The notes below the pieces were generated by a model. That model worked only from the letters and a program-made list of their open reading frames with translations. It was not told the DNA's origin and did no database searches. A DNA stretch of 64,000 nt from an uncultured bacterium (GTDB taxonomy: Bacteria; Muiribacteriota; Ozemobacteria; Ozemobacterales; Ozemobacteraceae), in contig CAYYUI010000007.1 in assembly GCA_964474705.1 (NCBI GenBank), positions 15,061 to 79,060 of the forward strand. Direction: 5' to 3'. Position 1 is the first letter of the stretch. Each line of letters starts with the position of its first letter. Position numbers and translations under genes: made by a program. Positions 6,146 through 64,000 of this stretch are shown one piece after another.

Positions 6146-6161
6146 TGGCATCCAACTTGCT
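6146..6161 (+). promoter_or_regulatory. Candidate sigma-54 (RpoN) promoter TGGCAT-N5-TTGCT, with GG at 6147-6148 and GC at 6159-6160.
   Basis: Exact -24/-12 spacing (GG-N10-GC) and a near-consensus TGGCAC-N5-TTGCA. No plus-strand CDS follows. An intrinsic terminator lies about 170 nt downstream. Confidence 0.4.
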
Positions 6162-6171
6162 ATATTAATGA

Positions 6172-7337: not shown

Positions 7338-7415
7338 CTGTTTCTCCCTTGTATTTTTTCCATGTTATCACAGTGCAGCTGTAGTAAAATAGCCATATCT
7401 TCTTGTTGAGGGGAA

Positions 7416-44618: not shown

Positions 44619-45290
44619 TTGTCGGATGAAAGAATGAGTACAAAATTACAGAAAGAACGCCTTGAACGGATGCTCAATGCTGCATTGGCCGAATTTTCCG
44701 AACATGGTTTCGAACAGGCCAATGTTAACGCAATAGCTGCACGGGCTGAAGTTAGCAAAGCAACTATTTACAGTCACTTTAATACCAAAGAAAATCTTTT
44801 CCTGGAAGTGTTCGATCACTTTCTCGATGTGAAAATGATTTCAGGGCCGTGTGAATGGAAAGCCGCCACATTTGAAAATGAGCTGAAAAAAGAGACCAGG
44901 CGCTTTTTCAGCCAGGCTTCGGAAAGCCCAGAAGCCAGGTTCTTTTTTCGCTGTATGACTGCTGACGATGGCATTCTCTGTGATGAGTTGCGCAATGAAC
45001 TGTCAGGACGTTTCATTGCTGCCGCTTTTGGGAAAATGAATGATCTCTTTGAAGCGGGCCGGCAGGGACTATTTAACCAAAATCTGGATATCGAGTTCGT
45101 GAAACATGCGATGATCGGGGTCATACTTCAGTCGCTTCGCTACCACTGGGATTGTGAAAGAAAGGTTTCTCTGACAAAGATTGCTGATCAGGTGTCTGAA
45201 TTCATTCTTTTTGGTATGTCAGCAAAAAGAAAGTGTGCTGATGTAAAACATGCCCGTAAAGAAAAGATTTCCAGGGGGAACAATCTGTGA
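44619..45290 (+). CDS. TetR/AcrR family transcriptional regulator (likely repressor of the downstream RND efflux operon).
   Basis: HTH NVNAIAARAEVSKATIYSHFNTKENLF. Located upstream of the tolC-MFP-RND genes. Confidence 0.85.
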   Translation: MSDERMSTKLQKERLERMLNAALAEFSEHGFEQANVNAIAARAEVSKATIYSHFNTKENLFLEVFDHFLDVKMISGPCEWKAATFENELKKETRRFFSQASESPEARFFFRCMTADDGILCDELRNELSGRFIAAAFGKMNDLFEAGRQGLFNQNLDIEFVKHAMIGVILQSLRYHWDCERKVSLTKIADQVSEFILFGMSAKRKCADVKHARKEKISRGNNL

Positions 45291-47949: not shown

Positions 47950-50900
47950 TTCTTGCCGATTCATCGATCAGGAGACCAGTAACCACGATCATGGCTTATC
48001 TGGCCATCGCTCTTTTCGGCATACTCTGTTACCTGGGGCTGGGGGTCGATGAATTTCCCGAAGTCGATATGCCAACCGTCACCGTAACCTGTGTTTATCG
48101 CGGGGCCAGCCCCGAAACCATGGAATCGAAAGTTGCCGATAAACTTGAAGAACAGCTGAATTCCATCAATGGCATAGAAAGCGTCAGGTCGGTCTGTTCA
48201 GAAAATATTGCCCGGGTTATTGCCGAGTTCAAGCTTGAGCGTAACATCGATGTCGCAGTTCAGGATGTTCGCGACAAGGTCGCCGGAATCAGAAGCATTC
48301 TGCCTGACGCAATGGATGATCCGGTAGTTGAAAAGTTCGATACCGGTGCCATCCCCATCATGACTCTGGCAATTTCTGGAAATCTGTCGGTGGCAGAGCT
48401 TTCCAGACACGTCAAGGATGTAGTCAAATCTCGTCTGCAAAGTATTCCGGGTGTTGGTTCGATCAGGGAACTCGGGGTTCGTGATCGCGAAATCAAGATA
48501 TGGATCGATAATAATCGATTGAACGCTCATCAACTGTCGGTGGCCGAAGTTGTCATGGCTGTTAAATCCAAGAACATCGAGATTCCTGCCGGCAAGATCG
48601 AGAACGACCGTAACGAGTTCGTGGTTAAAACCATGGGCGAACTGACCGACGTCGAAGCGTTCAGGCGTCTGACAATTGCAACCGTGAATCAGACTCCGAT
48701 TCATCTTGGCGAAATCGCCGACGTTGAAGACACTGTCGAAGATGAAACTTCGGTTGCCATGACCGACGGTAGGCCAATAGTCAGTCTTCAGGTTCAGAAA
48801 CAGTCAGGTGCAAATGCGGTCAAAGCGGCCCGGATGCTGAAAGAGGCTATTGCTGAGCTCAATCTCAATGCCCCACAGGGAGTAAAAATCCGGATTATCA
48901 TAGATACGACTCCATTTGCAGAAGAGTCGGTGCATTCAACGATGGTGGATATCGTAGTCGGCGGGGTACTGGCAGTTCTGGTAATTCTGTTTTTTCTGCG
49001 CAATGTCAGGTCTACCCTTATCTCGGCCCTGGCAATTCCATCATCGCTTCTGGCTGCCTTCATATTTATGCGGGTACTCGGTCTGACACTGAATACCATG
49101 ACTACCATGGCTCTGTCGTTGTCGGTAGGTCTGCTTATCGATGATGCGATTGTCGTTATCGAAAATATCTTCAGGCATCTGCGCCTGGGAAAACCACCGG
49201 CTCAGGCCGCCGGGGACGCTACCGAGGAAATCGGTCAGGCAGTTACTGCAACGACTTTTTCTCTGGTTGCCGTGTTTCTGCCGGTTGCTCTTATGAGCGG
49301 GATCGTGGGCCGTTTCCTCTATCATTTCGGCATTACGGTAACCGGAACGGTTCTGGTGTCACTGGTCGTCAGTTTTACACTTACCCCGATGCTGGCGGCG
49401 CGCTACCTTGAAAAGGAAGAGCACGAGAACGCGGTGGCAAGGTTTTTCGGCAGCATTCTCGATATGGTCGACGAGACTTATCGACGCATTCTTGCTTATG
49501 TTCTTGAACACCGCAATCTCATTCTGGTTTCCGGCGCTGCAATTCTGCTGCTGATCTGGGCATTGAGCGGCTTTATAGCATATGAATTCAAACCGCAGGT
49601 TGATAAAAGCCTGTTTCTGGTAAATTTCCGCACACCGGCAGGCACCTCTCTTGAGGGCTCCCGCAACATTGCCAGGGAGGCAGAAGGAAAAATTATCGCG
49701 CCGATAAAGGAATGGGTAACTTCTTCTTTGCTGACAGTCGCTGCTGACCCGCTTGAAGACCCGACCAAATGCACTATCACCCTTAATCTCAAACCGCGCA
49801 GCGAACGCCCTGGCCTGTCTCAACTGCAGCTTATGGATATGGTCAGAAAGACCTTGAGCGCAATTCCGGGTATTGAACGTGGCTCTGTTGAAGAGCATGA
49901 TCCGATGGCTGCCGGTATCGGGGCTGCCAACCAGCAGATGACTTATTCCCTGCTCGGGCCTGATTTTAAAGTTCTGGATGATTTGGCCGACCGCATAACG
50001 GCCTGGATGAAGCAGACTGGCGGTTTTGTCGATATAGTCGACACCCGCGAACCTGGCAAGCCTGAATTGCGGGTACGCCTGCTGCGCGAGCGTATGGATA
50101 CTCTTGGTGTCAATGTCGGGGCTCTGGCAACGACTCTGAATCTTCTGGTTGGCGGCCAGCAGGCAATTACACAGTTCAAAGCCGACGGGCGTCAATACGA
50201 CGTCAAAATGCGCCTGCAGAAAACTTTTCGTGAAAACACTGAGTATCTGCCAAATCTGATGGTGCGAACCAATGATGGCGGACGCACTGTGCCTCTCGCC
50301 AATCTTACCGAGTTTTCGGTCGAACCGGGTGCTGCCGCAATCAACCGTTTTAACCGGGCGCGCGAAATCCGGATTGGCTGTAATCTCGAGGGCAAAGTGC
50401 AGAGTTCCGCAAGTAGAGAATTTGAGGCTGAAATGAAGAAACTGCTGCCCCCGGGTTATCGAATCCAGCCGCAGGGATTGTCGAAAGTGCAGAAAGAAGC
50501 TGCGGAAGGTATGATTTTTGCCGCGCTCATAGCGGCTCTGCTGGTATACATGCTTCTGGCCTCACAGTTCGAAAACTACCTGCACCCTCTGACGATCATG
50601 ACTTCGGTGCCTCTGGGCGTAATCGGTGCTATCTTCGCTCTGATTATAACCCAGGCAAGAGTTGACGTCATGACCATGATTGGCTTTCTGATGCTGATGG
50701 GCCTGGTTGTTAAAAATGGTATTCTGCTCGTCGAGTTCATCAATCAGCAGCGCGAGCATGGCCTCAGTCGTCGCGAAGCGATTCTGGCCGCCGGTCCGAT
50801 CAGATTGCGGCCGATTATAATGACCAGCGCCTGCATGATCGGCGGAATGATTCCGCCGGCCATTTCGACCGGTCCGGGCTCCGAAATGCGTGTCGGCATG

Positions 50901-51032
50901 GCTATTGCCGTTATAGGAGGCCTGATCACCTCGACTCTGTTGACGCTGCTTTTTGTGCCGGTTATTTACGAGCTTCTCGAAGATATCTGCACTTATTTTG
51001 GTTTTCAGACATTTCGTGAAAAGCGGTCATGA
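47946..51032 (+). CDS. RND family efflux transporter permease (AcrB/HAE1-like).
   Basis: 1028 aa with 12 TM segments and two large periplasmic loops. Conserved TM4 Asp region (LLIDDAIVVIENI). Confidence 0.9.
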   Translation: MILADSSIRRPVTTIMAYLAIALFGILCYLGLGVDEFPEVDMPTVTVTCVYRGASPETMESKVADKLEEQLNSINGIESVRSVCSENIARVIAEFKLERNIDVAVQDVRDKVAGIRSILPDAMDDPVVEKFDTGAIPIMTLAISGNLSVAELSRHVKDVVKSRLQSIPGVGSIRELGVRDREIKIWIDNNRLNAHQLSVAEVVMAVKSKNIEIPAGKIENDRNEFVVKTMGELTDVEAFRRLTIATVNQTPIHLGEIADVEDTVEDETSVAMTDGRPIVSLQVQKQSGANAVKAARMLKEAIAELNLNAPQGVKIRIIIDTTPFAEESVHSTMVDIVVGGVLAVLVILFFLRNVRSTLISALAIPSSLLAAFIFMRVLGLTLNTMTTMALSLSVGLLIDDAIVVIENIFRHLRLGKPPAQAAGDATEEIGQAVTATTFSLVAVFLPVALMSGIVGRFLYHFGITVTGTVLVSLVVSFTLTPMLAARYLEKEEHENAVARFFGSILDMVDETYRRILAYVLEHRNLILVSGAAILLLIWALSGFIAYEFKPQVDKSLFLVNFRTPAGTSLEGSRNIAREAEGKIIAPIKEWVTSSLLTVAADPLEDPTKCTITLNLKPRSERPGLSQLQLMDMVRKTLSAIPGIERGSVEEHDPMAAGIGAANQQMTYSLLGPDFKVLDDLADRITAWMKQTGGFVDIVDTREPGKPELRVRLLRERMDTLGVNVGALATTLNLLVGGQQAITQFKADGRQYDVKMRLQKTFRENTEYLPNLMVRTNDGGRTVPLANLTEFSVEPGAAAINRFNRAREIRIGCNLEGKVQSSASREFEAEMKKLLPPGYRIQPQGLSKVQKEAAEGMIFAALIAALLVYMLLASQFENYLHPLTIMTSVPLGVIGAIFALIITQARVDVMTMIGFLMLMGLVVKNGILLVEFINQQREHGLSRREAILAAGPIRLRPIIMTSACMIGGMIPPAISTGPGSEMRVGMAIAVIGGLITSTLLTLLFVPVIYELLEDICTYFGFQTFREKRS

Positions 51033-51164: not shown

Positions 51165-52370
51165 GTGTTTGAAAGGGGAGTCTTGATGCCGCTCGTTCTG
51201 AACGACAAACGTGTTGTCGTGTTTCAGCCTGCGTCGAAAGATGATATCAGCGCGATCATCGACCTTTACATCAAGGTTTATAAAGGCAAATACACCCTCC
51301 CGGAAGTCGCAGACCCTGCTATTATTGCCAAAAAGGTAGAAGATCCTGCCTATTTCTGGACAGTTGCCAAAATAGAAGGCCGCCTCATCGGGTCAGTGAT
51401 TTTTGCCATCGACCCGGTCAACAAGATTGGCAAATCATACGCTGCTTCAGTGCTTAATGAATTTCGCGGTCAGGACGTCATGCGCACCATGGTCAGGCAC
51501 GGTCTGCAGCTGCTCACAGAAAAGACCCGCACCTGCGACATCATTTATGCAACCACCAGAACAGTCAGTTTTGCTCCTCAGGTGGTTCTTGAACATCTTG
51601 GTTTCATGTCTACCGGCATTTTTCCGAATGTGCGCAAAGTTGAATCCTTCGAGACACATGGGCTCGAGGTTTTTATGGGGCCTAAATGCCTTGAATACCG
51701 CCGCAAATGCCCGAAGCTGATTCCGGAAATGCTTGATTTCTATAATATCATCAGAGGCGATCTGAATCTTGAAGAGCCTGAGACTGTGGTTCTAGAGAGT
51801 GAAGACCCTCGCAGGATGGGCCCGGCCATCACCTTTGACGTTTTGACTGATGAAGATGCCGTCATCGAAAGGTTTTATCGCTATCAGGACAAAGACCTCA
51901 TGAAGAAGGTTTTCTTTCCTTTTACCGACCCTAATATGCTGTTTTCAGCCAAAGATGGCACTTCTGACATTTTCGTCAATTTCAATCCACTCGATGGCAA
52001 CGGAGTTATGGTCGGCTATCGGCATGCCGGTAAAGACCTGCGCAATACTCTGATGTGGTTCTGCGAAGAGGCTGCCAAATCAGGGATGCGTTATATTGAA
52101 ATGCTGGTGAGTGCTTTTTTGCCAAAGAAACAGCGGCTGGCTCTCGATGCAAAATTTCTTCCCTGCGCCTATTTCCCGGCCATGAAGATGTGCGATGACG
52201 GGCTGCGTGAAGACTTTCTCGTATTTTCCAGGTCGTTTGAAAGCCTCGATTTTATGGATATGCACCTGGTCGACAATAACAGGCGTTTTCTCGATGCGTT
52301 CATGAAATGCTGGTATGACCTTCTGGTCAGATGCCAGCCTGATTTTGACGAGGAGTGGAGAATTGGCTGA
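51165..52370 (+). CDS. Hypothetical protein, possibly a tandem GNAT-like acyltransferase fold (uncertain). First gene of the LuxE/LuxC-like cassette.
   Basis: N-terminal half shows a GNAT-like pattern (beta strand VVFQPAS, GRLIGSVIFAID, FRGQDVMRTMVRHGL...LEHLGF). The C-terminal half is a second, degenerate repeat. No confident family assignment. Confidence 0.55.
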   Translation: MFERGVLMPLVLNDKRVVVFQPASKDDISAIIDLYIKVYKGKYTLPEVADPAIIAKKVEDPAYFWTVAKIEGRLIGSVIFAIDPVNKIGKSYAASVLNEFRGQDVMRTMVRHGLQLLTEKTRTCDIIYATTRTVSFAPQVVLEHLGFMSTGIFPNVRKVESFETHGLEVFMGPKCLEYRRKCPKLIPEMLDFYNIIRGDLNLEEPETVVLESEDPRRMGPAITFDVLTDEDAVIERFYRYQDKDLMKKVFFPFTDPNMLFSAKDGTSDIFVNFNPLDGNGVMVGYRHAGKDLRNTLMWFCEEAAKSGMRYIEMLVSAFLPKKQRLALDAKFLPCAYFPAMKMCDDGLREDFLVFSRSFESLDFMDMHLVDNNRRFLDAFMKCWYDLLVRCQPDFDEEWRIG

Positions 52371-53490
52371 AGCAAAACCATTTGCCGCGTGTGGCGAACT
52401 TTTTGACGTTTCTGACGCTTTCGATCACAACCCTTATACCGGCCAGCTTTTTGACCGGGCCATGAACGAGGCACTGCGCTGGCATGCAGCCCGGTGCCCT
52501 GAATTCCGGGCATTTCTTTCCTGTGCCGGTCTGGGTGATTTCGACCAGGACTGCGCCCCTGAACAGATACCACCTCTACTGGTCACCATCTTCAAAGAAT
52601 TCAGGCTGATATCAGTGCCTGAAAAACAGGTCAAGATCGAATTGACCTCGTCCGGTACCGGTGGCCGCAAAAGCGCTATTGTGCTTGACCACCGCTCTTA
52701 TCGCCGTATTCTGAAGATCGTAAACAGTATTTTTGCTTCTCTGGGCATGGTCGATCACTCGCAAAAGGTTAATTATCTCTGTTTTACTTACGATCCGAAA
52801 GTTGCCGGAAATGTCGGCACCGCATTTTCAGATAAAATGCTCACTGGCCTGACTGCCAGACGCTCAGTCTTTTATGCCATCCGCTGGAACCATAACGCCA
52901 ATGATTTTGAATTCGATCTAGAAGCTACGGTTAAAAAGCTGATCGAGTTCAGTCGCCGTCCCGAACCAGTTAGAATTCTGGGGTTTCCAGCCTACCTCTG
53001 GCAGGTATGCAATCGCCTTGATGAGAAGGGCATGCGTCTGAATCTCGGTAAAAATTCATATATCATTACCGGTGGCGGCTGGAAGATGCACAAAGACCTC
53101 GAGGTGACCAAAGATATATTCAAGGATCGCATTGAGAAAGTTCTTGGCATGCCACGTCAGAATCTGCGTGACCTGTTTGGCATGGTTGAACACGGGATTC
53201 CCTACGTAGACTGCGAAGCCGGGCGGCTGCATGTCCCGGTGTTTGCCCGCGCGCTGGCGGTCGACCCCGAGACTCTGCAACCGGTCAAAGATGGCGAAGA
53301 AGGCCTGCTCTATCTCATGACCCCATATCTTTCCAGCTACCCTTCGATAGCCTTGCTGACTACCGACAAAGCGATCATCGAGGGCGACTGCCCCTGTGGC
53401 CGCCCCGGAAAAACCTTTCGCATAAGCGGCAGAGCCGGACTGGCCAAGCACAAGGGCTGCGCCATCACCGCGCTCGATCTGCTTAAATAA
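52315..53490 (+). CDS. LuxE-family acyl-protein synthetase (long-chain fatty acid-luciferin-component ligase homolog). An alternative TTG start at 52363 has an AGGAG RBS and overlaps the upstream stop.
   Basis: Direct motif matches to Vibrio LuxE: TSSGTGG (vs TSSGTNG), YIITGGGWK (identical), HVPVFARALAVDPETLQPVKDG (vs [22 protein letters not shown]), and C-terminal KHKGCAI (vs TQKGCAL). Confidence 0.85.
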   Translation: MTFWSDASLILTRSGELAEAKPFAACGELFDVSDAFDHNPYTGQLFDRAMNEALRWHAARCPEFRAFLSCAGLGDFDQDCAPEQIPPLLVTIFKEFRLISVPEKQVKIELTSSGTGGRKSAIVLDHRSYRRILKIVNSIFASLGMVDHSQKVNYLCFTYDPKVAGNVGTAFSDKMLTGLTARRSVFYAIRWNHNANDFEFDLEATVKKLIEFSRRPEPVRILGFPAYLWQVCNRLDEKGMRLNLGKNSYIITGGGWKMHKDLEVTKDIFKDRIEKVLGMPRQNLRDLFGMVEHGIPYVDCEAGRLHVPVFARALAVDPETLQPVKDGEEGLLYLMTPYLSSYPSIALLTTDKAIIEGDCPCGRPGKTFRISGRAGLAKHKGCAITALDLLK

Positions 53491-53493
53491 CGG

Positions 53494-56106
53494 ATGAACA
53501 ATATGAAAAAGCAAAAATGTATGGTTTTTGGCCGGCAGGTCGATGCGGAATGGCTGAACCAGGAAACCATCGGCGAAGTTCTTGCCGATGCGGCAGAAAA
53601 AGCTACCCTGGCAGCCGAACCAGATATTGAATGTATAATCGCTATTCTTGACCAGGTCGGGAAATCCTGGGCTGATCCTGAATATCATCTGAGGAGGCAG
53701 GCAGCAAAGATTTTGCCGGGCCTGACCCTTTTCAGCCCGGCAATGATCGAAGAAGGGTTTGCGGTTGTCAGCGCCATCTGCAGCCGACAGAATCTGGAAA
53801 AAAGACTCCGGGGAGAGCTCGGCGATCCTGCGGTTCTCGATCGCGGTATCGCGATGCCGCACCATGGTTACAGACTTCGTGCCGTTCCGCGCGGAATTCT
53901 TCTGCATCTTACCGCCGGTAATGTCTTTGTGGGTGCTGTTGACAGTCTTGTTTCCGGCATCATCACCAAGAATGCCAACATTCTCAAAATGTCGCGTGTC
54001 GATCCGGTATTTCCGCTGCTTTTCATCGAAAGTATCAAGGAACATGATCCGGCCGGCATTATCTGGCCCAACCAGGCGGCATTACTCTGGAAAGGCGGCG
54101 ATGCAGCCGTCGAGAATACCCTCTTGCAGGCTCCGATTACCGTCGTTTTCTGGGGTGGTCATGATGCTCTTCTGTCTTTGAAAGGTCGTATCGGCGCATC
54201 TACCAGACTGATCGAGAACGGGCCGCGCTACTCTTTTGCGGTAGTCGATGGCCGGCGCATCAGAAAAGGGCCCGCAGCTTCGATGATCAGAGGTCTGGCA
54301 CTCGATCTCTGTCGCTGGGATCAGCAGGCCTGCTCATCGCCGCATGTGGTCTACGTAATTGACCATGATATCAAGACAACGCATCTGCTTGCCGAAGCGC
54401 TTTATGATGAGCTTGTTCAGCTGCGTGAAGAGCTTCCGACTGGAGAACTGAGCTTCGACGAAAAAGTCGAGATTCGCAAGGTTCGCGAACTGGCACGCAT
54501 GTCGCAGGCCCGTGGCGAAGGCCGACTGATCTGCCCGGAAGATTTCAGCTTCACGCTGGTGATCGAGCATGACAGCGCCTTTAAGGTATCCTGTCTCAAC
54601 CGGACGCTTTTTTTCAAACAGACCCGGGACCTCGATACGATGCTGGAACAGGTCAGGCCGCTGGCAGCGTATCTGCAGACCGCCGGAATATATTGTGACA
54701 ACGAAATGGCAACCATGCTCGAGAATGAACTTTTCGCCACCGGCGTGAAACGCATCACCGAAATCGGTGGAATGAGCGAAGGGCATGATGGGGCACCGCA
54801 TGAGGGCAGTTTTCTGCTGCGCGGACTGGTTGAATGGGTCGATGTCGAATATCTCGGCAACTCAGCCAGTCGTGTTGAACTGCTTCTCAAGCAGATTCAA
54901 GCCTCCCCCTACTATCGGAATGCTGTTGAAAAAGCCGGCGGATGCGGTTTTGAGTATTTCCATAAGTTGCCGCTACTTGACCGCGAAACTTTTTACCGAA
55001 ATTCGCCCCCTGAATCTGAAGCGATTCTTACCGGGCCGATGACCGACAGTTACGTTTATGCCTCCGGGGGCACCACGGGCAGTCCGAAGTTCACTTTTTA
55101 TTCCAACGACGAATATCGCTACGTGACTGATGTACTGACAGATATTTACCGGAATGCCGGCATCTGCAGCAGGGATCGGGTAGCCAACCTTTTTATCGCC
55201 GGCAATCTCTGGACAAGTTTCAATGTTGCCGGCCGTGCCCTCGAGAACCTCGGTTGCCTGAATCTGCCGGTTGGCGGGGCTTCCGATCTCGAAAATATTC
55301 TCAAGTATCTGCAGATTTTTTCGGTCAATGCGGTGGTCGGCCTGCCGTCGATCATCATCAACCTTGCTGAAGAAATCAGCAGACGTGGTCTTCCGATCAA
55401 AATCGAAAAGATTCTTTATGGCGGCGAACATCTGCGTCCGCAAACCTGTGACTTTCTTCGTGAGGCTGTCGGTGCACAGCTGATCCGTTCGGCCGGCTAT
55501 GCCTGTGTCGATACCGGCCCGATCGGCTGGCAGTGTCTGCATCTCGATGGTTCGATACATCATGTTCTCGAAGAATACTGTTATGCCGAGATTCTCGATA
55601 CGGTTAATCATCAGCCTGTCGGTGGCAACACCGCGGGCGAAATTGTTGCAACCAATCTGAACCGGATATTGATGCCGGTGGTTCGCTATCGAACCGGCGA
55701 TCTGGGGCGCTGGGTCGAGACTGGGGTCTGCACCTGCGGTTTCAGAGGTCGGTCTTTTGAACTGCTTGGCCGATGCGATGATCTGCTGGTAATCGGCGGA
55801 ATCAATCTTATGCCTGTTGACATCGCAGCCGGTCTTGCCGGTTTACCGGTCAGTCAGTCATTTCAGATTGCCGCTCAGACAGCTGAAGGTCGCGACAGGC
55901 TGTGCCTCAGGCTCGAGGCTGAAAAGCCGGTTCCAGACAGCAGAGTCGTCGAGGCTTTGCGCCGGGGTTCATACAAAATTGCCGAATCTCTCGCCGAAAA
56001 CTGGATGACTATTGTAATTGAGTGGCATAAACCGGGCGCTATCAAACGTAACCCCCGCACCGGCAAACTCAAACCCGTGGTCGACGAAAGATTCAGTTCA
56101 GATTGA
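53494..56106 (+). CDS. Fusion protein: an N-terminal LuxC-family acyl-CoA/acyl-protein reductase domain (about aa 1-460) and a C-terminal PaaK/coenzyme F390 synthetase-like adenylate-forming domain (about aa 470-870).
   Basis: The LuxC-like segment is LHLTAGNVFVGAVDSLVSGIITKNANILKMS, with a putative catalytic Cys at QQACSSPH. The C-terminal half carries ASGGTTGSPKFTF (AMP-binding P-loop, as in PaaK) and a PaaK-like C-terminal subdomain. Confidence 0.75.
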   Translation: MNNMKKQKCMVFGRQVDAEWLNQETIGEVLADAAEKATLAAEPDIECIIAILDQVGKSWADPEYHLRRQAAKILPGLTLFSPAMIEEGFAVVSAICSRQNLEKRLRGELGDPAVLDRGIAMPHHGYRLRAVPRGILLHLTAGNVFVGAVDSLVSGIITKNANILKMSRVDPVFPLLFIESIKEHDPAGIIWPNQAALLWKGGDAAVENTLLQAPITVVFWGGHDALLSLKGRIGASTRLIENGPRYSFAVVDGRRIRKGPAASMIRGLALDLCRWDQQACSSPHVVYVIDHDIKTTHLLAEALYDELVQLREELPTGELSFDEKVEIRKVRELARMSQARGEGRLICPEDFSFTLVIEHDSAFKVSCLNRTLFFKQTRDLDTMLEQVRPLAAYLQTAGIYCDNEMATMLENELFATGVKRITEIGGMSEGHDGAPHEGSFLLRGLVEWVDVEYLGNSASRVELLLKQIQASPYYRNAVEKAGGCGFEYFHKLPLLDRETFYRNSPPESEAILTGPMTDSYVYASGGTTGSPKFTFYSNDEYRYVTDVLTDIYRNAGICSRDRVANLFIAGNLWTSFNVAGRALENLGCLNLPVGGASDLENILKYLQIFSVNAVVGLPSIIINLAEEISRRGLPIKIEKILYGGEHLRPQTCDFLREAVGAQLIRSAGYACVDTGPIGWQCLHLDGSIHHVLEEYCYAEILDTVNHQPVGGNTAGEIVATNLNRILMPVVRYRTGDLGRWVETGVCTCGFRGRSFELLGRCDDLLVIGGINLMPVDIAAGLAGLPVSQSFQIAAQTAEGRDRLCLRLEAEKPVPDSRVVEALRRGSYKIAESLAENWMTIVIEWHKPGAIKRNPRTGKLKPVVDERFSSD

Positions 56107-56401
56107 ACTGCTGAAATTCGCTGCTTATATAATGACAGTTTGCAGGGTGTGAAGAATTTGCCTTAGCAACGACTGCCGCGTTGATTTGCTCGCGAAGGCC
56201 AGAGATGGCCAGGTGTCGGTGAGTCGCCGGAGTGCGAACGAGCCGACCAGTGACAGTTTGTGACTGGTGTCATTGGCTCAGAGCGCTTTGATTGCTCATT
56301 CGCTCTGACGCTCGCGCATCCGTGCGCTTCGCGAGGAGTGAAACGACGAAGCAATCGCATGCTAAGGGCTGGGATTGTTTCGCTGTGCCCGCAACGGGAT
56401 G

Positions 56402-56701
56402 CTACATTCCGAATTTGGCACTCAACAGCAGTTTGGCGCCGCGGCTGAGTCTTTTTATCTGCATTTCGCGTTTTGAAGCAGTTGACCGGTCTGGCTGGCG
56501 CTCCTGATAACGCAAGATGACCGGCCCTCTGCCTCTGGTAAATCTGGCACCGGTGCCGTCATTGTGTGCGGCCAGCCGTTTCTCCAGATTGTTTGTTATT
56601 CCGGTGTACAGCCTGCCATCGCGGCATTCGACTATATAGACCGTCCAGGCTTCATCTTCGGCTGCATGGCTGATATCTGGGTTGTCAGGCCGGTTTGACA
56701 T
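56402..56701 (-). CDS. GIY-YIG nuclease-superfamily small protein (UPF0213/YhbQ-like). The start is uncertain among 56701, 56728 and 56758.
   Basis: WTVYIVECRDGRLYTGITNNLEKRLAAHN is the GIY-YIG core. About 100 aa. Confidence 0.7.
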   Translation of the reverse strand: MSNRPDNPDISHAAEDEAWTVYIVECRDGRLYTGITNNLEKRLAAHNDGTGARFTRGRGPVILRYQERQPDRSTASKREMQIKRLSRGAKLLLSAKFGM

Positions 56702-58277
56702 GGTAATAGACCAGCGGTTTTTCGACATTTTTGACCGGTGCCGATTCCGGGCCGGCAAACTGCCAGCGGCCTGATTCTAAAGCAACTTCTCTGATCTTTT
56801 CGGTGGCGAGAACCTGCCCTGCCTTGGCCAGCCCCTGCAGGCGGGCGGTGATATTCATGCCGGAGCTGAATGCCGTGAGATCGTCGTTTGGTCCTATCAG
56901 ACCTACTACAGCAGGGCAGAAGTTAGTGCCGATCGCAACTCCGAACTTTTCGAAATCAGGGTGCTTCTGAATGTCGTCATTCTCAGGCAGGCGCAGATAC
57001 TCGTTGGTGTAATCGATGATTATTTTAGCGCATTCAAGAACCTTCTGCACGATCGCTTTCGAATCTAGTTCGTAGAAAGGTGGGCCGAACAGCAGAATCA
57101 GGCAGTCGCCGACAATCTTGTCAAGACAGGCCCCGTGCGGAAAAACTCTGGTGACGATGCCATTCGACCATTTGTCGACGAAATTGGTGATTCGTTCAGG
57201 AGTTTTGAGAATCTGTTCGCTCATTTTGGTGAAACCTGAAATATCGGCGAAGATTATGCCAATCTGTTCGGCGCGGGGTGTCAGATAAACCTTTTCGTAG
57301 CCTGGCTCGGCGGTAAGTCTCGCAATAACCGGGTCAGGGAAAAATTTGCGCAGCATGTTACGTTCGCGGTTGAAGTCGACCAGTCGCTGGCGCAGGCTCT
57401 CGGCAAAAACCTGGACGATTTCGCGGGCGAAAATCGAGAAATTGCGGCCATCTTCAGGCACAAAGATGACCTTGCCGATCAGATTTTCTTCAATCAGGCC
57501 GTCAAGCAGATAAGTGATCGTCAGGTTTTCACAGCCGATTGCCTTTTTCAGCGCTTCACTGTCTGCAGACAGGCTATTGCCGTTTGCTTTGATAAAACTT
57601 TCAAGCCCAGGATGGACGTTTTCGCCGGAACCATAAACCCGCTGGTCATTCTCATATACCAGATAATTGATGTTCTCGACCCCGGTTAGTTCGTGATCTG
57701 AATAGAGAATTATCAGTTTGCTGAAGGGAACTTCCTTGCGCAGAACATACACGGCTCCGTCGATCGAGTCGACGATCGAATGGTTCTTGAGTGCAGACTG
57801 AATGCCCATGATCAGGCTGTGCTTCAGACTGCTGGTGTGAATTCCGAAAAAAAAGTTATCGAGCAGTTCACTGACTGTGTCGAGCATGGCAGTGCCAAGG
57901 TTTTTCTCGGGCGCTGTTTCGTGCGGAAAAGCAAGGGCGATTGCCCCGGTGATTTTACCGGCCATCTCGATCGGCTGAGCAAACCAGTGAATATTGTTGA
58001 AATTGAAGTTGATGGCCCGGGTTATCTGATGCAGCTGTGGGACGAGTCTCTTGATGTTGTTGTCGCAGCTGCCATAACAGAATACCTGATGGTTGAGGTT
58101 TTCGTCCTGGGTTTCGACAAACATTGCCGTGGTTTTGCAATGCTCCGCAAGAAACAGAAAGACCTTGCCCAGCGAACCATCAAGGTCATAATGTGCGGAC
58201 TCGAGCTCTTCTACTAACTTGTCAAGTTTCAGGTTCAAGTCACGCAGCTGCTGAAGTTCCTGAAAATTAAAATCCAT
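56685..58277 (-). CDS. Adenylate/guanylate cyclase (class III CHD) with N-terminal GAF-like sensor domain(s).
   Basis: C-terminal IGIIFADISGFTKMSE...KIVGDCLILLFG...GIAIGTNFCPAVVGLIG is CHD. The N-terminal ~330 aa have a GAF/PAS-like alpha/beta pattern. Confidence 0.8.
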   Translation of the reverse strand: MDFNFQELQQLRDLNLKLDKLVEELESAHYDLDGSLGKVFLFLAEHCKTTAMFVETQDENLNHQVFCYGSCDNNIKRLVPQLHQITRAINFNFNNIHWFAQPIEMAGKITGAIALAFPHETAPEKNLGTAMLDTVSELLDNFFFGIHTSSLKHSLIMGIQSALKNHSIVDSIDGAVYVLRKEVPFSKLIILYSDHELTGVENINYLVYENDQRVYGSGENVHPGLESFIKANGNSLSADSEALKKAIGCENLTITYLLDGLIEENLIGKVIFVPEDGRNFSIFAREIVQVFAESLRQRLVDFNRERNMLRKFFPDPVIARLTAEPGYEKVYLTPRAEQIGIIFADISGFTKMSEQILKTPERITNFVDKWSNGIVTRVFPHGACLDKIVGDCLILLFGPPFYELDSKAIVQKVLECAKIIIDYTNEYLRLPENDDIQKHPDFEKFGVAIGTNFCPAVVGLIGPNDDLTAFSSGMNITARLQGLAKAGQVLATEKIREVALESGRWQFAGPESAPVKNVEKPLVYYHVKPA

Positions 58278-58304
58278 GCTACACCTCGGTGTTGAGATTA
58301 GGGC

Positions 58305-58979
58305 TCATTCCTTGAGACTGAAGGACAGAACATGCCAGGTCACATAACCGGCAATGGCCAGCCAGACCAGACCAACCAGCCAGCCTGGCATGAACAGCAT
58401 TTCGCCAATTTTGGAAGCATCAGAGCAGGCTATCGATCGGTCGATCAGATCTTCTTTGATGTCGATAAGCACATAAAGACATGAGGTCAGGCCAAGAAAT
58501 TTCAGGAACTGGTCGCAGACTTTCTCGCTTGTATAAGCTGCGAGAGCCAGCAAACCCATCCCGGTCAACGAACAGATGATGATGCCTTCAAGATTTCTGA
58601 CCCAGATAGCAGTCACTGCCAGAAGCAGTATGCCTAACCCGGCGGTGATCTGTTGATCGAACCTGGTTTTGACTGCTCCAAGCAGAATCAGGCATCCCCA
58701 GAACAGACTGCCCAGATAGCCGGCACTGGTTACGATAAAACGTATACCCCCGGCTGTCCAGCAGACACCGCCGAGATTGGCGTTGATCTCTATTTTGACA
58801 ATTTCACCGCCGGTAAAAACGGCCGCCAGACCGTGCGACAGCTCGTGAAAGAATACAGTAAGATACTTGATCGGCAGCACCAGCATCGAGTCCCAGAAAA
58901 AGATGGCCAGCAGCACAGCCGCCATTGGCAGCATCATTCCTGCGGCATTTCCAGAAGGTTTCAGTTCCGTCTGTTCATT
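58305..58979 (-). CDS. Peptidase M50B-like membrane metalloprotease (HExxH inside a TM helix). Start probably MNEQTELK; the listed ORF extends to 59135 and overlaps the upstream gene end.
   Basis: FFHELSHGLAA is a zinc-binding motif of the M50B type (PF13398), in a polytopic membrane protein of about 6 TM segments. Confidence 0.7.
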   Translation of the reverse strand, partial: NEQTELKPSGNAAGMMLPMAAVLLAIFFWDSMLVLPIKYLTVFFHELSHGLAAVFTGGEIVKIEINANLGGVCWTAGGIRFIVTSAGYLGSLFWGCLILLGAVKTRFDQQITAGLGILLLAVTAIWVRNLEGIIICSLTGMGLLALAAYTSEKVCDQFLKFLGLTSCLYVLIDIKEDLIDRSIACSDASKIGEMLFMPGWLVGLVWLAIAGYVTWHVLSFSLKE

Positions 58980-59010
58980 CATCGAATCGATTTCCAAGCT
59001 GACTCCTTCT

Positions 59011-62000
59011 TCAGGCTGCAGTGGCCGGCTTAAAGGTGAAAAACCGGAACAGCAGATAAAGGGCAAGGGTTGCCGAGAACCCGAGCTGCACAAAATGATC
59101 GGCCTGATAAAGCTTGAGATAAACGGCAATCGCAAGAATCATTCCCTGCACGGCAGTTACCATGAACCATTTGTAATGGTTGGCTGAGGTGAACATCTTG
59201 ATCACGCCGACAGCAGCCAGAATACCGACCACAATCATGATGAACTGAAACAGGAAACCGCGCCCCTTTCTCGGGTTGATCAGCATGCCTTCGATGTAGG
59301 GCGCTTTGCCGGTCGGTTCGATCTGCAGCATCGAGAAAGATATCGGCCAGCTGGTCGTTGGAATCTTGAATTTGACAGGCAACAGACCGGTCTGGTCAAA
59401 AACCTTGTCGCTCTGTTTCTGCTGAGAAGCCATCTGCGACTGAGCAGGTGCTTTCTGCCGTTTCTGAATATTCGAGTAGGAGCTCAGCGAAGAGAAATAG
59501 GAACTGTTGTCGAGAAATCTGGTTTCGGCAATTTTCAGCAGCCGGTCGACGTTCCCTTTTTCACGCATCAGCTCGTAGCCTTCCGGCAGGTAGACGACCC
59601 AGCTCAATTCGCTGATCGGCAGATGGGCAGATGGCAACTCCATGTAAGTCTGGTTGAAAGCGCTCAATTCTTTTCCAAGCTTGATCGCATAGACTATTTC
59701 CACCGGGAAAGACTTGGATTCGCCGCCTTCCAGCGCTGATCTGACGATCGGCAGATTGTATACTCCCAGCTCGGCATTGAGCCCGGATCTTACCGACAGG
59801 CCGGCAACCTGAGTGCTCCAGAGTTCGGTAGTCGCCGCGCCAAACTGTGGCAGCTTGACTTTCAGGAATTGTTCCGAGTTGTTTCGTACTTCATAGACAA
59901 CCCTGGTCAGCAGGTAACCGTCTTCGTTGAGCAGGGTCATTGCTTCGGCGCGATCGATGACTGCTGTCTGCTGCTCGATGTCTTCAGGCCGAGCAACCGT
60001 TATAGTCAGATTATTCGGATGTTTGAGAAATTTGAAGGCGTAAGGAGTCTTTTCAGGCCGCTCACGGTTCCAGTCTTTGAGAAATTCAGCAGCGACAGTC
60101 GGTGTGTAGCCTTCCCGGTTGCCATTTTCCGATATCTCGAGGGCCTGAATACAGCCGATGCCAAGCAGGCCCCAGGATTGTTCTACATCGAGCGGAATTA
60201 TTTCCGGCACGTTGTAATTTCCATCCTTGAGGTTTTGAATGTCTTCTTCGAATTCGATCGTCAGCTGTGTGTTCCCACGGATTTTCGATTTGAATACCAC
60301 ATCGATGTGGCGGCTGTTACCGGCTTCAACCTGGCGCCAGTCCTCGATCAGCTTGTTTTCGACTTTCAGCACTCTTATTTTGTCGGGAATCTGGAAGGCG
60401 ATGCTGGCAATCCCGCTGCCGCCCATGATTTTGAGGTCGAAAATGTTGATGCCGGTGACGAAGCCCTCTTTGAAGTGGAGCAAATTCTGTTGTCGCACGG
60501 TTATTCTGGTCTTTTCTTCGATTATAACCGGTTCTTCCTCTGTTTCAGATGGTTGATCGGCAGATTTGACCTCCTCGGGCGGGGCACTTTCGACGTTGCG
60601 GTAAAGTTCGAAGTTGACAGTCTGAGTCGGGGGTAGAATGGCAAAAAATACGGTCTTTTCAGGAGTTTTTTCGCTGTTGCGCAGCACGCCCGGGTCGATC
60701 CAGGCTTCGCAATCTTTTTCGTTCACCGTAATCTGCAGAGTCGAAATGCAGACTGGAACCATGTTGAGGCTGAAACGGCTGGAATGCTTGTATTCGCTGG
60801 ATGCCATCGGAATAAAAAATTCAACGGTGACCATTGCCGGACCAGAAGCATTGGTCATGAAGCCGTAGGAGGTTTCACCCTGGTCTTCGATCAAGGTCAT
60901 GGCAAGAGGCTCGTCGTTAAGAGAAGCGGAAGAAGGAATGGCTTCGGTTGAAAGAAGACCGACTTTTTTCCAGCCCGAGTTGAAGAGGTTCAGCTTGAAT
61001 TCAGCATTGAATCTGACGCCGCGCTCTTCAATCGTGCCACGGTATTTGACCCCGTCAAAACTGAAGGCGGCCGGGGCGATTACTTCCTTGACCGGTGGAA
61101 TTTCGATGTCTTTGAGAAAGCGATAATCGGCTTCTGGAATGATTACGGCCCGATCACCCGAAGGCATTACCTTCGAGAGATCCTGGAACGGTGCCATGAC
61201 CCGGATTTCGCGGTAATCGGCGGCAAAAACCGGCATGCCGGCAAGAATGATGATGGTCATGATGAGCATGAGCAGTATTGCCGTCATACTGCGGCCGGAA
61301 GTTGGTGGAACATCGGTTTTGATTTCGACAACCGGAGTCTGGTTTTCGATTTTTACCTGACTCAGAAGCAGGATAGCTTTCCAGATCACTGCGCCGATCA
61401 TGGCCAGCCAGAACCCGGCATTGGCGGCATCGCCAACACTCTTCAGTTTCAGGTCGACAATTGACAGAAAAACGATGATCAGGGCGGCGAAGGTGATTTT
61501 GGACGGGATGCCCTGGAAAGCGCCGGCAACGAAATACAGGGCGCTAAAAAGGGCCAGGATGAAGGCAACGATTTCGGTGGTTCGGAGAATTGAAGCCCAG
61601 ACATAGCTCAACCTGACGCTCGGGCAGGTCGAATTGGGCAGCAGGGCTCCATCGGTTGCGACTTCAGCCATTACCAGATCACGTTCAAGGGTATAAAAAT
61701 TCTTGGTCATGACAAATTTGGATTTGATTGGCAGCATGCCACGGTTTTTGGCAGCTCCGAACCCCGCTTTGCCGCCTTTGCCAGGAGCTTCCTGCTGAAG
61801 GTCAGCCATCTGCTCGTTCATTGCCTGAGGTGCGGCCAGCATGCTTTTGCCGCTGACATCGGCACGCTTGTATTCAATGCTTTCATTTTCCATTCTGCGT
61901 GCAACGTTGACCTGATTGAGATCACCTTCAACCGGCCCATGCAGCTGGCAATAAATGACGCCTGTTTCTGCCAGATTGCCTGAAGACAGGTAGTGACATC

Positions 62001-64000
62001 TCGTTTCGGGTAGATTTGGCCTGCTTTTTAGATATTTGCTGTTGAGCAGAGCATCGATGTCGAGCGACGTCATGCCATTTTCCTTGTCCATGTTGTACAT
62101 TTCGACAGCCCCGAGCAATACCCGCTGATTGGCGTAACAGGCTTTGTCTCTTGCCTGTTCTCTTGCTTTTCGGAAATTGGGTATTGCCATGGCCGCCAGG
62201 ACGCCGATGATCATGATCACAATCATCAGTTCGATAAGGCGAAAACCCTTGCCGCCGAACACGAAACCGAAAATGGCGCAGACAGCATTCCACAGCCAGC
62301 CGAGAATCGACAGCAGCAGGCTGCGTGATACCACCGCCAGGACGATGACAGCCATGAAGAGCAGGAAAATCACTGTGTCAGGATGTCTGACCAGCGACCA
62401 GGCAGCGCTCAAAATATGCATGAAACCACGAAAGAAGAATGGATCTTTTCTGGCCTGTGGGTCTTTTACCGTTCCGGTGAAGCTGTAGAGATGGTAATCG
62501 TCAGGGGCATACAGATACCATGAAAAATGAGAAACGGGTATGTCGACGAGTGGTGGCGCAAAGGCCATGCTGCCATACCAGGCGACGTCATCAACCGGTT
62601 CCTTGATGAGAATCTGCAGATTGATTTCGACCGGTTCGCCAATTTTCTGGCTCATCTCGAGGGGAATCTGAACCATTCCGGGAAGTTTGCTGTTGACGGG
62701 CTTGATAGAAACGCCGCTGCGGAAAGTCGACAGCACTTCGGCCCCTGAGGCCAGCTGTAATTGCAGATACTGCTTGTTGTTGTTGCGGATGTTCATGCTC
62801 ACCAGCGTATTGCTTGATTTGTTGGTGGTGAAGGTAGTTTTTACATCCATGCTGTCGGCGACGACGGTCTGCTGCGGCACGTCAAGATAGCGCTTGATTG
62901 CCACCTCGATATTTGTCGGGCTGACGTTATGTCTCCAGGCGAGCAACAGCGGTCTTGTCGCTCTGTCTTTGAGTGGTTGAGGAATTTCAAGATGATCTAT
63001 CGGATAAATGCCTTTGGCAAGCGGATTTGTGTCGAGGTTGCCCGGTTGTACTTCAACTGAGGTCAGCGCTTCGACAGCTATCACCCCGAGTTCTCTTTCG
63101 ACTCCGACTGGTGACAGTTCGGGAAGACTGATCATTTTGCTGGTGAGGTCGATCGGAGCTTCGTAATCTATCTCGATCTGGCAGACATCTTCGCGGCCCG
63201 GAGAAAATTCGATGCGCAGCCGTTTATGATTGCCTTCACGGAGCATTTTCTGGTTCTGAGGGCGGTCGGCATTGACCGCGACGATTTCGATTCCTTCAGG
63301 GATATTGAAGGAAAAGCTGGAAACGGGTGCCTTGCTTATCGTGTAGTCAAAAGTTTTATGCACGTAGATCGATGTTTCGCCAAGGCTGACCAGAGTGTGG
63401 GAACGTGCATACACCAGTGGCTGAATCTGCGGACGCGGGGCGGTAACCGGCAAGGAAACTTCAGCAGTTGTACTTGCCGTGCCGCTGGCAGTCGTGGGAA
63501 CCGGTTCGACCGCCGGTGGTTTCTGGATGTCGGCTGCCGGTTGTCTGGCAAATTTGCGCCGCCATTTGAGGTTGACGTCACTGTTGGCGCCAAGCCAGCC
63601 GATGAATTCACAGCCTTTTCCTTCTGATGTTTCGGCAACATTGAAATCTTTGAAAGTTGTGCTGTCAATTGAGAGGATGAAATCGGCGGCATTCAGCTGC
63701 AGAAAAGTGAGCGGAATGCGGGTTATGCTGAACTGCAGAGTGAAAAGATCGTCGAAATTCTGTATCGGCACGACGAGAGCGACCCGACAGACATGCGCAC
63801 CCCGGCCGGCAATCGGCAGGATGAACATGGCGTCTTTCCAGTTGTTCTGGCTGAGGGTGTCGTTGTTTGAAGTCATTGTGTTATAGACATTCTGCAGCAT
63901 GTTCTGACGGTTCATTTTGCCGAACTGAACCTGGCGGGTCTGCCCGGCAAACCAGTTGGTGCGCAGCGTTGTCGGCCGGTCGTCGAGGGTAACTGATTCT
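59011..64000 (-). CDS. Giant multi-domain membrane protein of more than 1,660 aa. It is N-terminally truncated by the window edge, and the frame stays open through position 64000. It contains two homologous halves of about 600-700 aa; each has a beta-rich ectodomain followed by a TM cluster. The first TM cluster contains a class-III (type IV pilin/pseudopilin) signal-like segment plus a GspG-like pseudopilin globular region.
   Basis: Uninterrupted ORF of 4.9 kb. Internal pilin motif GKG|FRLIELMIVIMIIGVLAAMAIPNFRKAREQARDKACYANQRVLLGAVEMYNMD. The second half begins with a signal-peptide-like MTAILLMLIMTIIILAGMPVFAADY. Internal repeats match, e.g. FNIPEGIEIVAV...SHFSWYLYAPDDY vs FQIPDKIRVLKV...SELSWVVYLPEGY. 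A degenerate pilin-like segment lies near the C-terminus (GRGFLFQFIMIVVGILAAVGVI). Confidence 0.75.
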   Translation of the reverse strand, partial: ESVTLDDRPTTLRTNWFAGQTRQVQFGKMNRQNMLQNVYNTMTSNNDTLSQNNWKDAMFILPIAGRGAHVCRVALVVPIQNFDDLFTLQFSITRIPLTFLQLNAADFILSIDSTTFKDFNVAETSEGKGCEFIGWLGANSDVNLKWRRKFARQPAADIQKPPAVEPVPTTASGTASTTAEVSLPVTAPRPQIQPLVYARSHTLVSLGETSIYVHKTFDYTISKAPVSSFSFNIPEGIEIVAVNADRPQNQKMLREGNHKRLRIEFSPGREDVCQIEIDYEAPIDLTSKMISLPELSPVGVERELGVIAVEALTSVEVQPGNLDTNPLAKGIYPIDHLEIPQPLKDRATRPLLLAWRHNVSPTNIEVAIKRYLDVPQQTVVADSMDVKTTFTTNKSSNTLVSMNIRNNNKQYLQLQLASGAEVLSTFRSGVSIKPVNSKLPGMVQIPLEMSQKIGEPVEINLQILIKEPVDDVAWYGSMAFAPPLVDIPVSHFSWYLYAPDDYHLYSFTGTVKDPQARKDPFFFRGFMHILSAAWSLVRHPDTVIFLLFMAVIVLAVVSRSLLLSILGWLWNAVCAIFGFVFGGKGFRLIELMIVIMIIGVLAAMAIPNFRKAREQARDKACYANQRVLLGAVEMYNMDKENGMTSLDIDALLNSKYLKSRPNLPETRCHYLSSGNLAETGVIYCQLHGPVEGDLNQVNVARRMENESIEYKRADVSGKSMLAAPQAMNEQMADLQQEAPGKGGKAGFGAAKNRGMLPIKSKFVMTKNFYTLERDLVMAEVATDGALLPNSTCPSVRLSYVWASILRTTEIVAFILALFSALYFVAGAFQGIPSKITFAALIIVFLSIVDLKLKSVGDAANAGFWLAMIGAVIWKAILLLSQVKIENQTPVVEIKTDVPPTSGRSMTAILLMLIMTIIILAGMPVFAADYREIRVMAPFQDLSKVMPSGDRAVIIPEADYRFLKDIEIPPVKEVIAPAAFSFDGVKYRGTIEERGVRFNAEFKLNLFNSGWKKVGLLSTEAIPSSASLNDEPLAMTLIEDQGETSYGFMTNASGPAMVTVEFFIPMASSEYKHSSRFSLNMVPVCISTLQITVNEKDCEAWIDPGVLRNSEKTPEKTVFFAILPPTQTVNFELYRNVESAPPEEVKSADQPSETEEEPVIIEEKTRITVRQQNLLHFKEGFVTGINIFDLKIMGGSGIASIAFQIPDKIRVLKVENKLIEDWRQVEAGNSRHIDVVFKSKIRGNTQLTIEFEEDIQNLKDGNYNVPEIIPLDVEQSWGLLGIGCIQALEISENGNREGYTPTVAAEFLKDWNRERPEKTPYAFKFLKHPNNLTITVARPEDIEQQTAVIDRAEAMTLLNEDGYLLTRVVYEVRNNSEQFLKVKLPQFGAATTELWSTQVAGLSVRSGLNAELGVYNLPIVRSALEGGESKSFPVEIVYAIKLGKELSAFNQTYMELPSAHLPISELSWVVYLPEGYELMREKGNVDRLLKIAETRFLDNSSYFSSLSSYSNIQKRQKAPAQSQMASQQKQSDKVFDQTGLLPVKFKIPTTSWPISFSMLQIEPTGKAPYIEGMLINPRKGRGFLFQFIMIVVGILAAVGVIKMFTSANHYKWFMVTAVQGMILAIAVYLKLYQADHFVQLGFSATLALYLLFRFFTFKPATAA

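Follow-up and report, generated by a model that had tools for sequence, protein, structure and literature searches.

In a window of 64,000 nucleotides (nt) of DNA from an uncultured bacterium of the Ozemobacteraceae (assembly GCA_964474705.1, contig CAYYUI010000007.1, positions 15,061 to 79,060), the list of open reading frames (ORFs) and their translation place four tightly packed ORFs on the minus strand, from 56402 to beyond 64000. In the direction of transcription they encode a giant envelope protein with a type IV pilin domain embedded in the middle of its chain, an M50B-like intramembrane zinc metalloprotease (M50B below), a class III nucleotidyl cyclase and a small GIY-YIG protein. Comparison with related genomes showed that the conserved unit is the pair formed by the giant gene and M50B, that this pair is specific to Riflebacteria, and that the cyclase and GIY-YIG genes are later, clade-specific additions. 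The best reading of the locus is a lineage-specific envelope protein/protease pair with an unusual embedded pilin, a variant of modular pilins and of membrane-protein/intramembrane-protease pairs. An earlier note on this DNA had taken the four genes for one operon and had suggested that the protease processes the giant protein and that the cyclase supplies cAMP or cGMP output. That interpretation was partly supported overall; for the idea of a four-gene, cAMP-coupled system the value of the present analysis is corrective, because only two of the four genes form a conserved unit. No account of the locus was found in the searchable literature, in line with the note's statement that the gene combination is undescribed.

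Gene content was compared by tblastn and ORF clustering in 75 loci obtained from a scan of one genome per species, and adjacency was counted in the 31 loci that held enough downstream DNA. In 29 of these 31 Riflebacteria loci the gene immediately behind the giant gene was M50B, at giant-protein identities ranging from 93% to 37%. The stop of the giant gene and the start of M50B often overlapped by 4 nt, and the recurrence of this overlap in many loci suggests that the two genes are translationally coupled. The pair also outlasts the replacement of both of its flanks (L029, L037 and the Ozemobacter-like loci). What follows it varies from clade to clade. The 530-aa cyclase adjoined M50B in 15 loci, all with a giant-protein identity of at least 55%, and in 0 of the 13 loci at 44% or less, and the GIY-YIG gene was found only behind this cyclase (12 loci). 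A second clade shows the order giant, M50B, FecR, CHASE2-cyclase, with the 530-aa cyclase about 8 kb off, beyond genes on the opposite strand. HTH-type and unknown genes stand behind M50B in a third clade, and CRISPR-Cas I-C, radical-SAM or unknown genes in Ozemobacter-like genomes; in one of the latter (L036:5362-11219) a type I-C cassette comprising Cas3, Csd1/Cas8c and Cas7 directly follows M50B. Deeper relatives of the giant protein, at 30% and 23% identity, had no adjoining M50B. Non-random adjacency thus holds for the giant gene and M50B, across changed flanks, and does not extend to the four-gene neighbourhood.

In the window itself the packing is as the note had described, with no more than 30 nt between genes. 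The gap between the giant gene and M50B measures 13-28 nt, according to the M50B start chosen; that between M50B and the cyclase measures 27 nt and contains GAGGTG ahead of the cyclase; and the end of the cyclase and the start of the GIY-YIG gene overlap by 17 nt. The database gene call for M50B covers 58305-58982 (225 aa) and is identical to homolog P0186. The TTG at 58997 is the likelier start, because AAGGAG lies 5 nt upstream of it and the orthologs are ~230 aa long. A consensus scan detected no promoter- or terminator-like sites in any of the junctions, and promoter-like matches in the scan were no commoner than in shuffled sequence. The spacing, the Shine-Dalgarno-like sequences and the lack of promoter or terminator signals at the junctions make the proposed co-transcription plausible. 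None of the four genes is a chance ORF, since each has many orthologs. The orthologs come from metagenome-assembled genomes, mostly named Candidatus Riflebacteria, Rifleibacterium or Ozemobacteraceae, and exact matches to the M50B and cyclase proteins were found in assembly GCA_020047475.1. The source organism itself belongs to Candidatus Riflebacteria.

The reading frame of the giant gene, whose stop side lies at 59011, is still open at the edge of the window (position 63999). Because of this, and because full-length orthologs measure 1,830-1,900 aa, ~172 N-terminal residues of the protein fall outside the window; residue numbers given here refer to the 1,662-aa fragment unless the full protein is stated. 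We collected 54 Riflebacteria orthologs, 35-93% identical and mostly full-length at 1,775-1,906 aa. The full-length ortholog P0001 (93% identical) begins with a signal peptide, its N-terminus being MKLRFLLPALCFVLTCFSVHA. The first ectodomain, Module A, is followed by a hydrophobic stretch of ~48 residues, whose hydropathy is compatible with either one or three membrane crossings, and then by the pilin. A low-complexity linker joins the pilin segment to a tail motif, which precedes three membrane helices and recurs behind the second ectodomain, Module B, and in single-module members of the family. Ahead of Module B stands an internal signal-peptide-like element, present in 45 of 45 aligned orthologs with mostly small residues at positions -3 and -1. 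An AlphaFold model of Module B and the C-terminus (pLDDT ~85-93 in Module B) predicts tandem beta-sandwiches, then a beta-hairpin at 680-703 and three helices within 709-784 (model numbering). Modules A and B are paralogous (24% identity, E 1e-24), and the whole protein has about 10 membrane helices. Searches of Pfam and NCBIfam with the giant protein and its halves found no domain besides the pilin segment. One distant relative (L046) encodes this architecture in two genes with a 4-nt overlap, divided exactly at the internal signal-peptide-like element. Because the split falls at that point, the giant gene looks like a fusion of a Module A-pilin-tail-helices gene with a signal peptide-Module B-tail-helices gene. 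Cleavage by signal peptidase at the junction ahead of Module B is plausible.

The embedded pilin is a complete domain. Its prepilin motif, G585/F586-R-L-I-E590 (the slash marks the putative cleavage point), occurs in the context GKG/FRLIELMIVIMIIGVLAAMAIP with a hydrophobic alpha1-N helix behind it. The isolated segment matched TIGR02532 at 24.2 bits (cut-off 16.3), which bears out the internal prepilin-like motif that had been noticed before; Pfam N_methyl scored 20.8, just short of its cut-off of 21.2, and the NCBIfam models for ComGC, PilA and GspG gave partial matches below their full-length cut-offs. Free-standing Riflebacteria pilins of 112-137 aa are 60-66% identical to the embedded one over ~110 residues, and these have a normal leader, MNKRRG/FTLIEL. 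The embedded motif is found at about residue 757 of the ~1,834 of the full protein, preceded by the signal peptide, the ~650-aa ectodomain and membrane segments; it lacks the short basic N-terminal leader expected of prepilins.

Conservation within the pilin is uneven. Nearly all 45 orthologs retain the core PNFRKAREQARDKACYAN...GA.EMY.MD; retention of G-1, F+1 and E+5 is confined to those at about 43% identity or more. The cleavage motif is degraded in ~10 of the 45 (P0041, P0043-P0053), which argues that cleavage at the motif is no universal requirement. Among these orthologs are P0047 and P0048, whose loci (L037 and L029) still carry an adjacent M50B. Prepilin sites are substrates of A24 aspartic peptidases, and to our knowledge M50 enzymes are not the peptidases that act on them. 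Both points leave the proposal that M50B processes the giant protein at its prepilin motif weak and unsupported. A comparable arrangement was seen in P0057, a protein of 2,785 aa with the same Module-helices-pilin-Module layout and a DUF1559-type internal pilin segment, and we infer its planctomycete-type phylum from that DUF1559 domain alone. An internal pilin-like segment was present in at least 19 of 156 representatives of the Module family, all of at least 1,540 aa, and most of these segments had no canonical cleavage motif. P0057 and these representatives indicate that the embedded pilin is old and recurrent in multi-module proteins and that motif cleavage is not generally required. Type IV pilins are currently viewed as proteins that have an N-terminal leader and are extracted from the membrane. 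This view does not predict a complete pilin in the middle of a polytopic chain of ~200 kDa, as seen here in Riflebacteria, planctomycete-type and other unplaced lineages.

Three further observations concern pilin-related genes. A free-standing related pilin adjoins a PilT-like ATPase gene in L060:8752-10324, and another adjoins a gene for a 241-aa membrane protein with CxxC...CxxC that resembles a prepilin peptidase in L071:9947-11191, the identity of both neighbours being read from sequence alone. A protein of ~125 aa with one hydrophobic helix and a pilin-like Cys head (YL...CPE.G.Y...I.C..H), and with no G/F...E motif, is encoded upstream in the syntenic block, at L009:2323-2700 and at the corresponding places in L008, L011, L014 and L016.

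M50B matched PF13398 (Peptidase_M50B) over profile positions 3-199 of 201 (155.2 bits, cut-off 26, E 2e-45); like this identity, those given earlier to the nucleotidyl cyclase and the GIY-YIG protein correspond to Pfam matches above cut-offs. The HELSH sequence is encoded at 58833-58847. Both HExxH and DIKxDLxD (D174, D178 and D181) are invariant in 18 M50B orthologs, the alignment of which lacks an NPDG motif, and the active site appears intact. Hydropathy predicts about 5-6 hydrophobic segments in the ~230 aa, and no extra domain was detected with Pfam. M50B-like proteins have been described as a family with HExxH in a hydrophobic segment, no NPDG and a conserved downstream Asp (PMC5249076). 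A sequence-profile search of the PDB with M50B gave nothing meaningful. Cleavage of the giant protein by M50B would be the most economical reading of the coupled pair, and the conserved pair offers a concrete candidate substrate for the PF13398 protease family, which has none known.

All in all, the explanation that we favour, and to which we would give about even chances as a whole, is that of a conserved envelope-protein/protease pair with polyprotein-like maturation and docking to a pilus, accompanied by the cyclase and GIY-YIG genes as passengers. The region would be the 3′ part of a Candidatus Riflebacteria operon with the giant gene and M50B as its core. The giant protein, of ~1,840 aa, would consist of a signal peptide, ectodomain A, one or more membrane segments and a complete copy of the major type IV pilin of this organism, and then of a tail motif, three helices, the internal signal-peptide-like helix, ectodomain B, the second tail and three more helices, and its insertion would leave the two ectodomains and the pilin head on the periplasmic side of the membrane. 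Its maturation is probably that of a polyprotein. A likely step is cutting by signal peptidase at the conserved VFA/AD-type site before ectodomain B; in the present clade prepilin peptidase may also cut at G/F; M50B would then act on the membrane-embedded segments, by removal of the leftover signal anchor or helices or by regulated cutting of them. Docking of the giant protein to the type IV pilus or pseudopilus machinery, or its incorporation into the base of that machinery, is the most likely role of the embedded pilin, and one that would be independent of the cleavage motif. The other two products, a soluble class III adenylate cyclase with tandem GAF-like domains and the GIY-YIG protein, would be co-transcribed passengers, adjacent only where giant-protein identity reaches at least 55%; the cyclase may be linked to the membrane pair.

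Several observations weigh against this explanation, and four of them speak directly for its strongest competitor, that the adjacency of the two genes is inherited with no functional link and that M50B is a general housekeeping membrane protease in a mixed transcription unit. Two Riflebacteria loci (L021 and L044) lack the giant-M50B adjacency. In other large genomes, M50B homologs at ~50% identity stand alone, no Module protein being encoded nearby, and giant Module-family proteins outside Riflebacteria have no adjacent M50B, so neither partner strictly needs the other. The unrelated upstream genes lspA, two lgt and rluD are also syntenic across two clades, and since these housekeeping genes keep their order too, part of the synteny may be simple inheritance. 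In addition, three crossings ahead of the pilin, should these be real, would place its head in the cytoplasm; no characterised member, substrate or structure of M50B-like proteins was found in the literature or the PDB; and that M50B cuts the giant protein is so far what we infer and nothing more. On the other side, mere inheritance would have to accommodate a pair that spans 37-93% identity, persists after both flanks have been exchanged and shows in many loci the 4-nt overlaps suggestive of translational coupling. We consider mere inheritance unlikely, though it is to be taken seriously.

With the envelope protein/protease pair as the preferred reading, we turn to the cyclase, which the earlier note had called a GAF-adenylate cyclase. 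The 530-aa protein matched PF00211 (Guanylate_cyc) with 39 bits (cut-off 21.9, E 8e-10), and its AlphaFold model has a pLDDT of 90. In the catalytic domain, PDB profiles gave matches to CyaC (E 4.5e-17) and CyaB, and target-normalised TM-scores to CyaC, CyaB and Cya2 reached 0.82-0.90. Across 63 homologs there is no variation at D345, K387, D391 and R479, and conservation of N475 is 90% or more; their roles (metal binding, substrate Lys, transition state) we take to follow from the class III motifs FxDxxGFT, K..GD and N...R. The Lys typical of adenylate cyclases is present, and the second specificity position has no confident assignment. A structure search with the whole chain returned as best PDB match 6fht, a phytochrome GAF-PHY-cyclase fusion (E 6e-19, query TM-score 0.41), and the model of the N-terminal region contains two alpha/beta domains with 5-stranded sheets, which may be of the GAF or the PAS type. 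The GAF families PF01590, PF13185 and PF13492 did not match residues 1-326 even at E up to 10, Pfam detected no GAF in the 120 listed homologs, and ahead of residue 291 the PDB sequence profiles gave nothing but a match at chance level (E 0.38), to a protein designed de novo. Because no GAF sequence model matches the protein or its homologs, the term describes a likeness of fold only: the cyclase half of the name is upheld, the GAF half has no sequence match. The same cyclase family occurs in Myxococcota-type genomes. The GIY-YIG protein matched PF01541 (60.4 bits, cut-off 22.6, E 2e-16) with both motif elements visible (WTVYIVEC...RLYTGIT); it is a small stand-alone domain protein, a putative nuclease, with no evident tie to the other genes.

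That all four genes form one signalling system, in which M50B cuts at or near the prepilin-like site and the cyclase gives a cAMP or cGMP output, is improbable in our judgement. The tight packing of all four genes agrees with it, as do the intact catalytic residues of M50B and the cyclase and the presence behind M50B of two cyclase types in two clades, one GAF-like and the other a CHASE2-cyclase with FecR. Such a system is difficult to reconcile with the 13 loci at 44% identity or less, in which neither the cyclase nor the GIY-YIG gene occupies this position, and with the loss of the prepilin motif in deep orthologs that retain M50B, such sites belonging, by general knowledge, to the A24 peptidases. 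Moreover, hydropathy reveals no membrane segment in the cyclase, a member of the same cyclase family adjoins a PP2C phosphatase gene in a Sandaracinaceae genome, and GIY-YIG would have no evident role.

We regard as similarly improbable that the giant protein is a polyprotein whose pilin is freed N-terminally by prepilin peptidase and C-terminally by M50B, or else a chain whose pilin stays tethered as an anchoring or terminating subunit in the pilus base. Either version, if true, would tie pilus assembly physically to a large envelope scaffold, by which type IV filaments would be controlled or anchored in a new way, and would give the M50B-like protease family its first identified substrate. 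Finally, that the giant ORF is an assembly or annotation artefact fusing Module A, pilin and Module B genes, as the existence of free pilins, the resemblance of its parts to independent proteins, the predominance of single-module proteins in the family and the two-gene version in L046 might suggest, is effectively refuted by a frame that is uninterrupted in the window and in more than 40 independent assemblies from different samples (35-93% identity, 100% coverage).

Table 1. Coordinates of the genes and domains described (window positions unless a locus is named; residues of the giant protein in fragment numbering)
Feature	Position	Strand	Details
Giant envelope protein gene, 5′ end cut by the window	59011..64000	-	1,662 of ~1,834 codons present
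Ectodomain Module A, partial	62473..63999	-	fragment residues 1-509; after signal peptide in P0001
Hydrophobic membrane segments just ahead of pilin	62251..62397	-	residues 535-583, hydropathy
Complete type IV pilin domain	61921..62247	-	residues 585-693, G/FRLIELMIV to HGPVEGD
First tail motif (GMLPIKSKF...) and three membrane helices	61348..61740	-	residues 754-884, hydropathy
Internal signal-peptide-like segment	61225..61299	-	SGRS, hydrophobic core, VFA/AD (residues 925/926); directly ahead of Module B
Ectodomain Module B, tandem beta-sandwiches	59554..61221	-	fragment residues 927-1482, AlphaFold model
Second tail motif (GLLPVKFKIP...) and three C-terminal membrane helices	59014..59388	-	AlphaFold model and hydropathy
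M50B-like intramembrane zinc metalloprotease	58305..58997	-	230 aa from TTG 58997; 225 aa from ATG 58982
Cyclase gene	56685..58277	-	ORF list
Cyclase N-terminal region	57348..58277	-	residues 1-310; two alpha/beta sensor-like (GAF/PAS-like) domains and long helices, AlphaFold
Class III nucleotidyl cyclase catalytic domain	56685..57275	-	residues 335-530; stop codon included
Small GIY-YIG protein	56402..56701	-	99 aa, PF01541; length as gene call in GCA_020047475.1
L046 first gene	2695-5571		958 aa; Module A-helices-pilin-like-tail-helices
L046 second gene	5568-7883		771 aa; signal peptide-Module B-tail-helices; no M50B behind
Upstream genes seen in relatives (276-aa protein / K+ channel)	L002:~300-930, L004:8826-9656, L009:5747-6580, L009:8478-9482		

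The Modules belong to a family that reaches well beyond this locus. An exhaustive search with the single sequence of Module B retrieved 2,213 cluster representatives with an E-value of 1e-3 or lower, of which 964 scored 1e-10 or lower, the commonest members being single-module proteins of 600-800 aa. With more than 2,200 sequence clusters, the family makes up a sizeable uncharacterised part of bacterial envelope biology. In the Pfam copy used here no family matched any of 39 diverse members; many of P0001-P0054 bear the precomputed Pfam label PF26697, absent from that copy, so the family may already be catalogued. Two candidate identities were rejected, since neither a Bat/aerotolerance-like operon (MoxR, DUF58, vWA, BatD) nor a DUF4139-type identity for the Modules gave such Pfam matches even at permissive thresholds. 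Module-family genes occur in tandem in L077:4199-16358 (planctomycete-type), L079:5022-11090 (Sandaracinus) and L080:3614-14882. In L079 and L080 an ECF sigma factor gene directly precedes them, with a vWA/YfbK-like protein of ~1,240 aa in between in L080; the sigma factor neighbours suggest that the genes may be tied to envelope signalling in those lineages.

Upstream of the giant gene, at a distance of 60-200 nt, relatives carry a highly conserved gene for a secreted or anchored protein of 276 aa, whose invariant SGHARYGGG and LNCCDS motifs suggest a His/Cys dyad. Profile searches with this protein gave no match in Pfam or the PDB, and its identity as a clan-CD-like cysteine protease, prompted by the SGHA and NCCDS motifs, was set aside as a guess with no database support. 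Many loci have, between the 276-aa gene and the giant gene, a gene for a K+ channel with RCK domains (Ion_trans_2, TrkA_N, TrkA_C). Given these conserved upstream genes in relatives, the operon may start outside the window. On the other side, plus-strand genes for a GNAT protein, a LuxE acyl-protein synthetase and an 870-aa LuxC/AMP-binding enzyme fusion (51165-56106) converge on the operon; this cluster is found along with the cyclase and GIY-YIG genes in 13 of the 15 loci with an adjacent cyclase, the other two running off their contigs. Before it, at 44619-51032 on the same strand, lies an RND efflux operon with a TetR regulator, an outer-membrane factor, an HlyD-type adaptor and an AcrB-type pump. 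The 295-nt spacer between the GIY-YIG gene and the LuxC fusion (56107-56401) has inverted repeats, and its folding is more stable than that of shuffled sequence (z = -3.1). Rfam gave no match to this spacer or anywhere else in the window, and the corresponding spacers of relatives are mostly much shorter, from an overlap to about 50 nt.

Among known systems, the cyclase resembles class III enzymes such as cyanobacterial CyaB1/CyaB2, Spirulina CyaC and Pseudomonas CyaB in its catalytic fold and in its metal, Lys, Asn and Arg residues. As in GAF/PHY-cyclase fusions, long helices appear in the model to connect tandem sensor-like domains to the catalytic domain, whereas, unlike in the GAF-cyclases CyaB1/CyaB2, these sensor domains match no GAF or PAS sequence model. 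Module B, with beta-sandwiches followed by a membrane anchor, has its best fold match in ribophorin I/Ost1 (E 2e-10), at TM-scores of only 0.17-0.33 and 8-11% identity; Foldseek against the PDB also returned integrin legs and the M1 peptidase N-domain, and because such resemblance is generic, we draw no functional inference from it.

As in site-2 protease (M50) systems, such as RseP/RseA and SpoIVFB/pro-sigma-K, an HExxH protease gene stands here beside that of a plausible membrane substrate. The position of Module-family genes behind ECF sigma genes in Sandaracinus and two other distant loci likewise recalls regulated intramembrane proteolysis. Unlike RseP and SpoIVFB systems, M50B-like proteins lack the NPDG motif and PDZ domains, and Pfam and NCBIfam reveal neither a cytoplasmic effector nor an anti-sigma domain in the giant protein; the 276-aa upstream protein would be a speculative candidate for a site-1 protease. 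Modular type IV pilins, in which a pilin module is fused to a functional module, are exemplified by PilB and PilC of Streptococcus sanguinis. The giant protein differs from these in that its pilin does not follow a short N-terminal leader but lies in mid-chain (at ~757 of ~1,834), in that membrane helices on either side of the pilin would hold it in the membrane unless it were cut twice, and in that its cleavage motif is dispensable in deep orthologs. It agrees with them in having a genuine pilin module with its hydrophobic alpha1-N helix, G/F...E5 motif and Cys-containing head that is covalently joined to large non-pilin domains.

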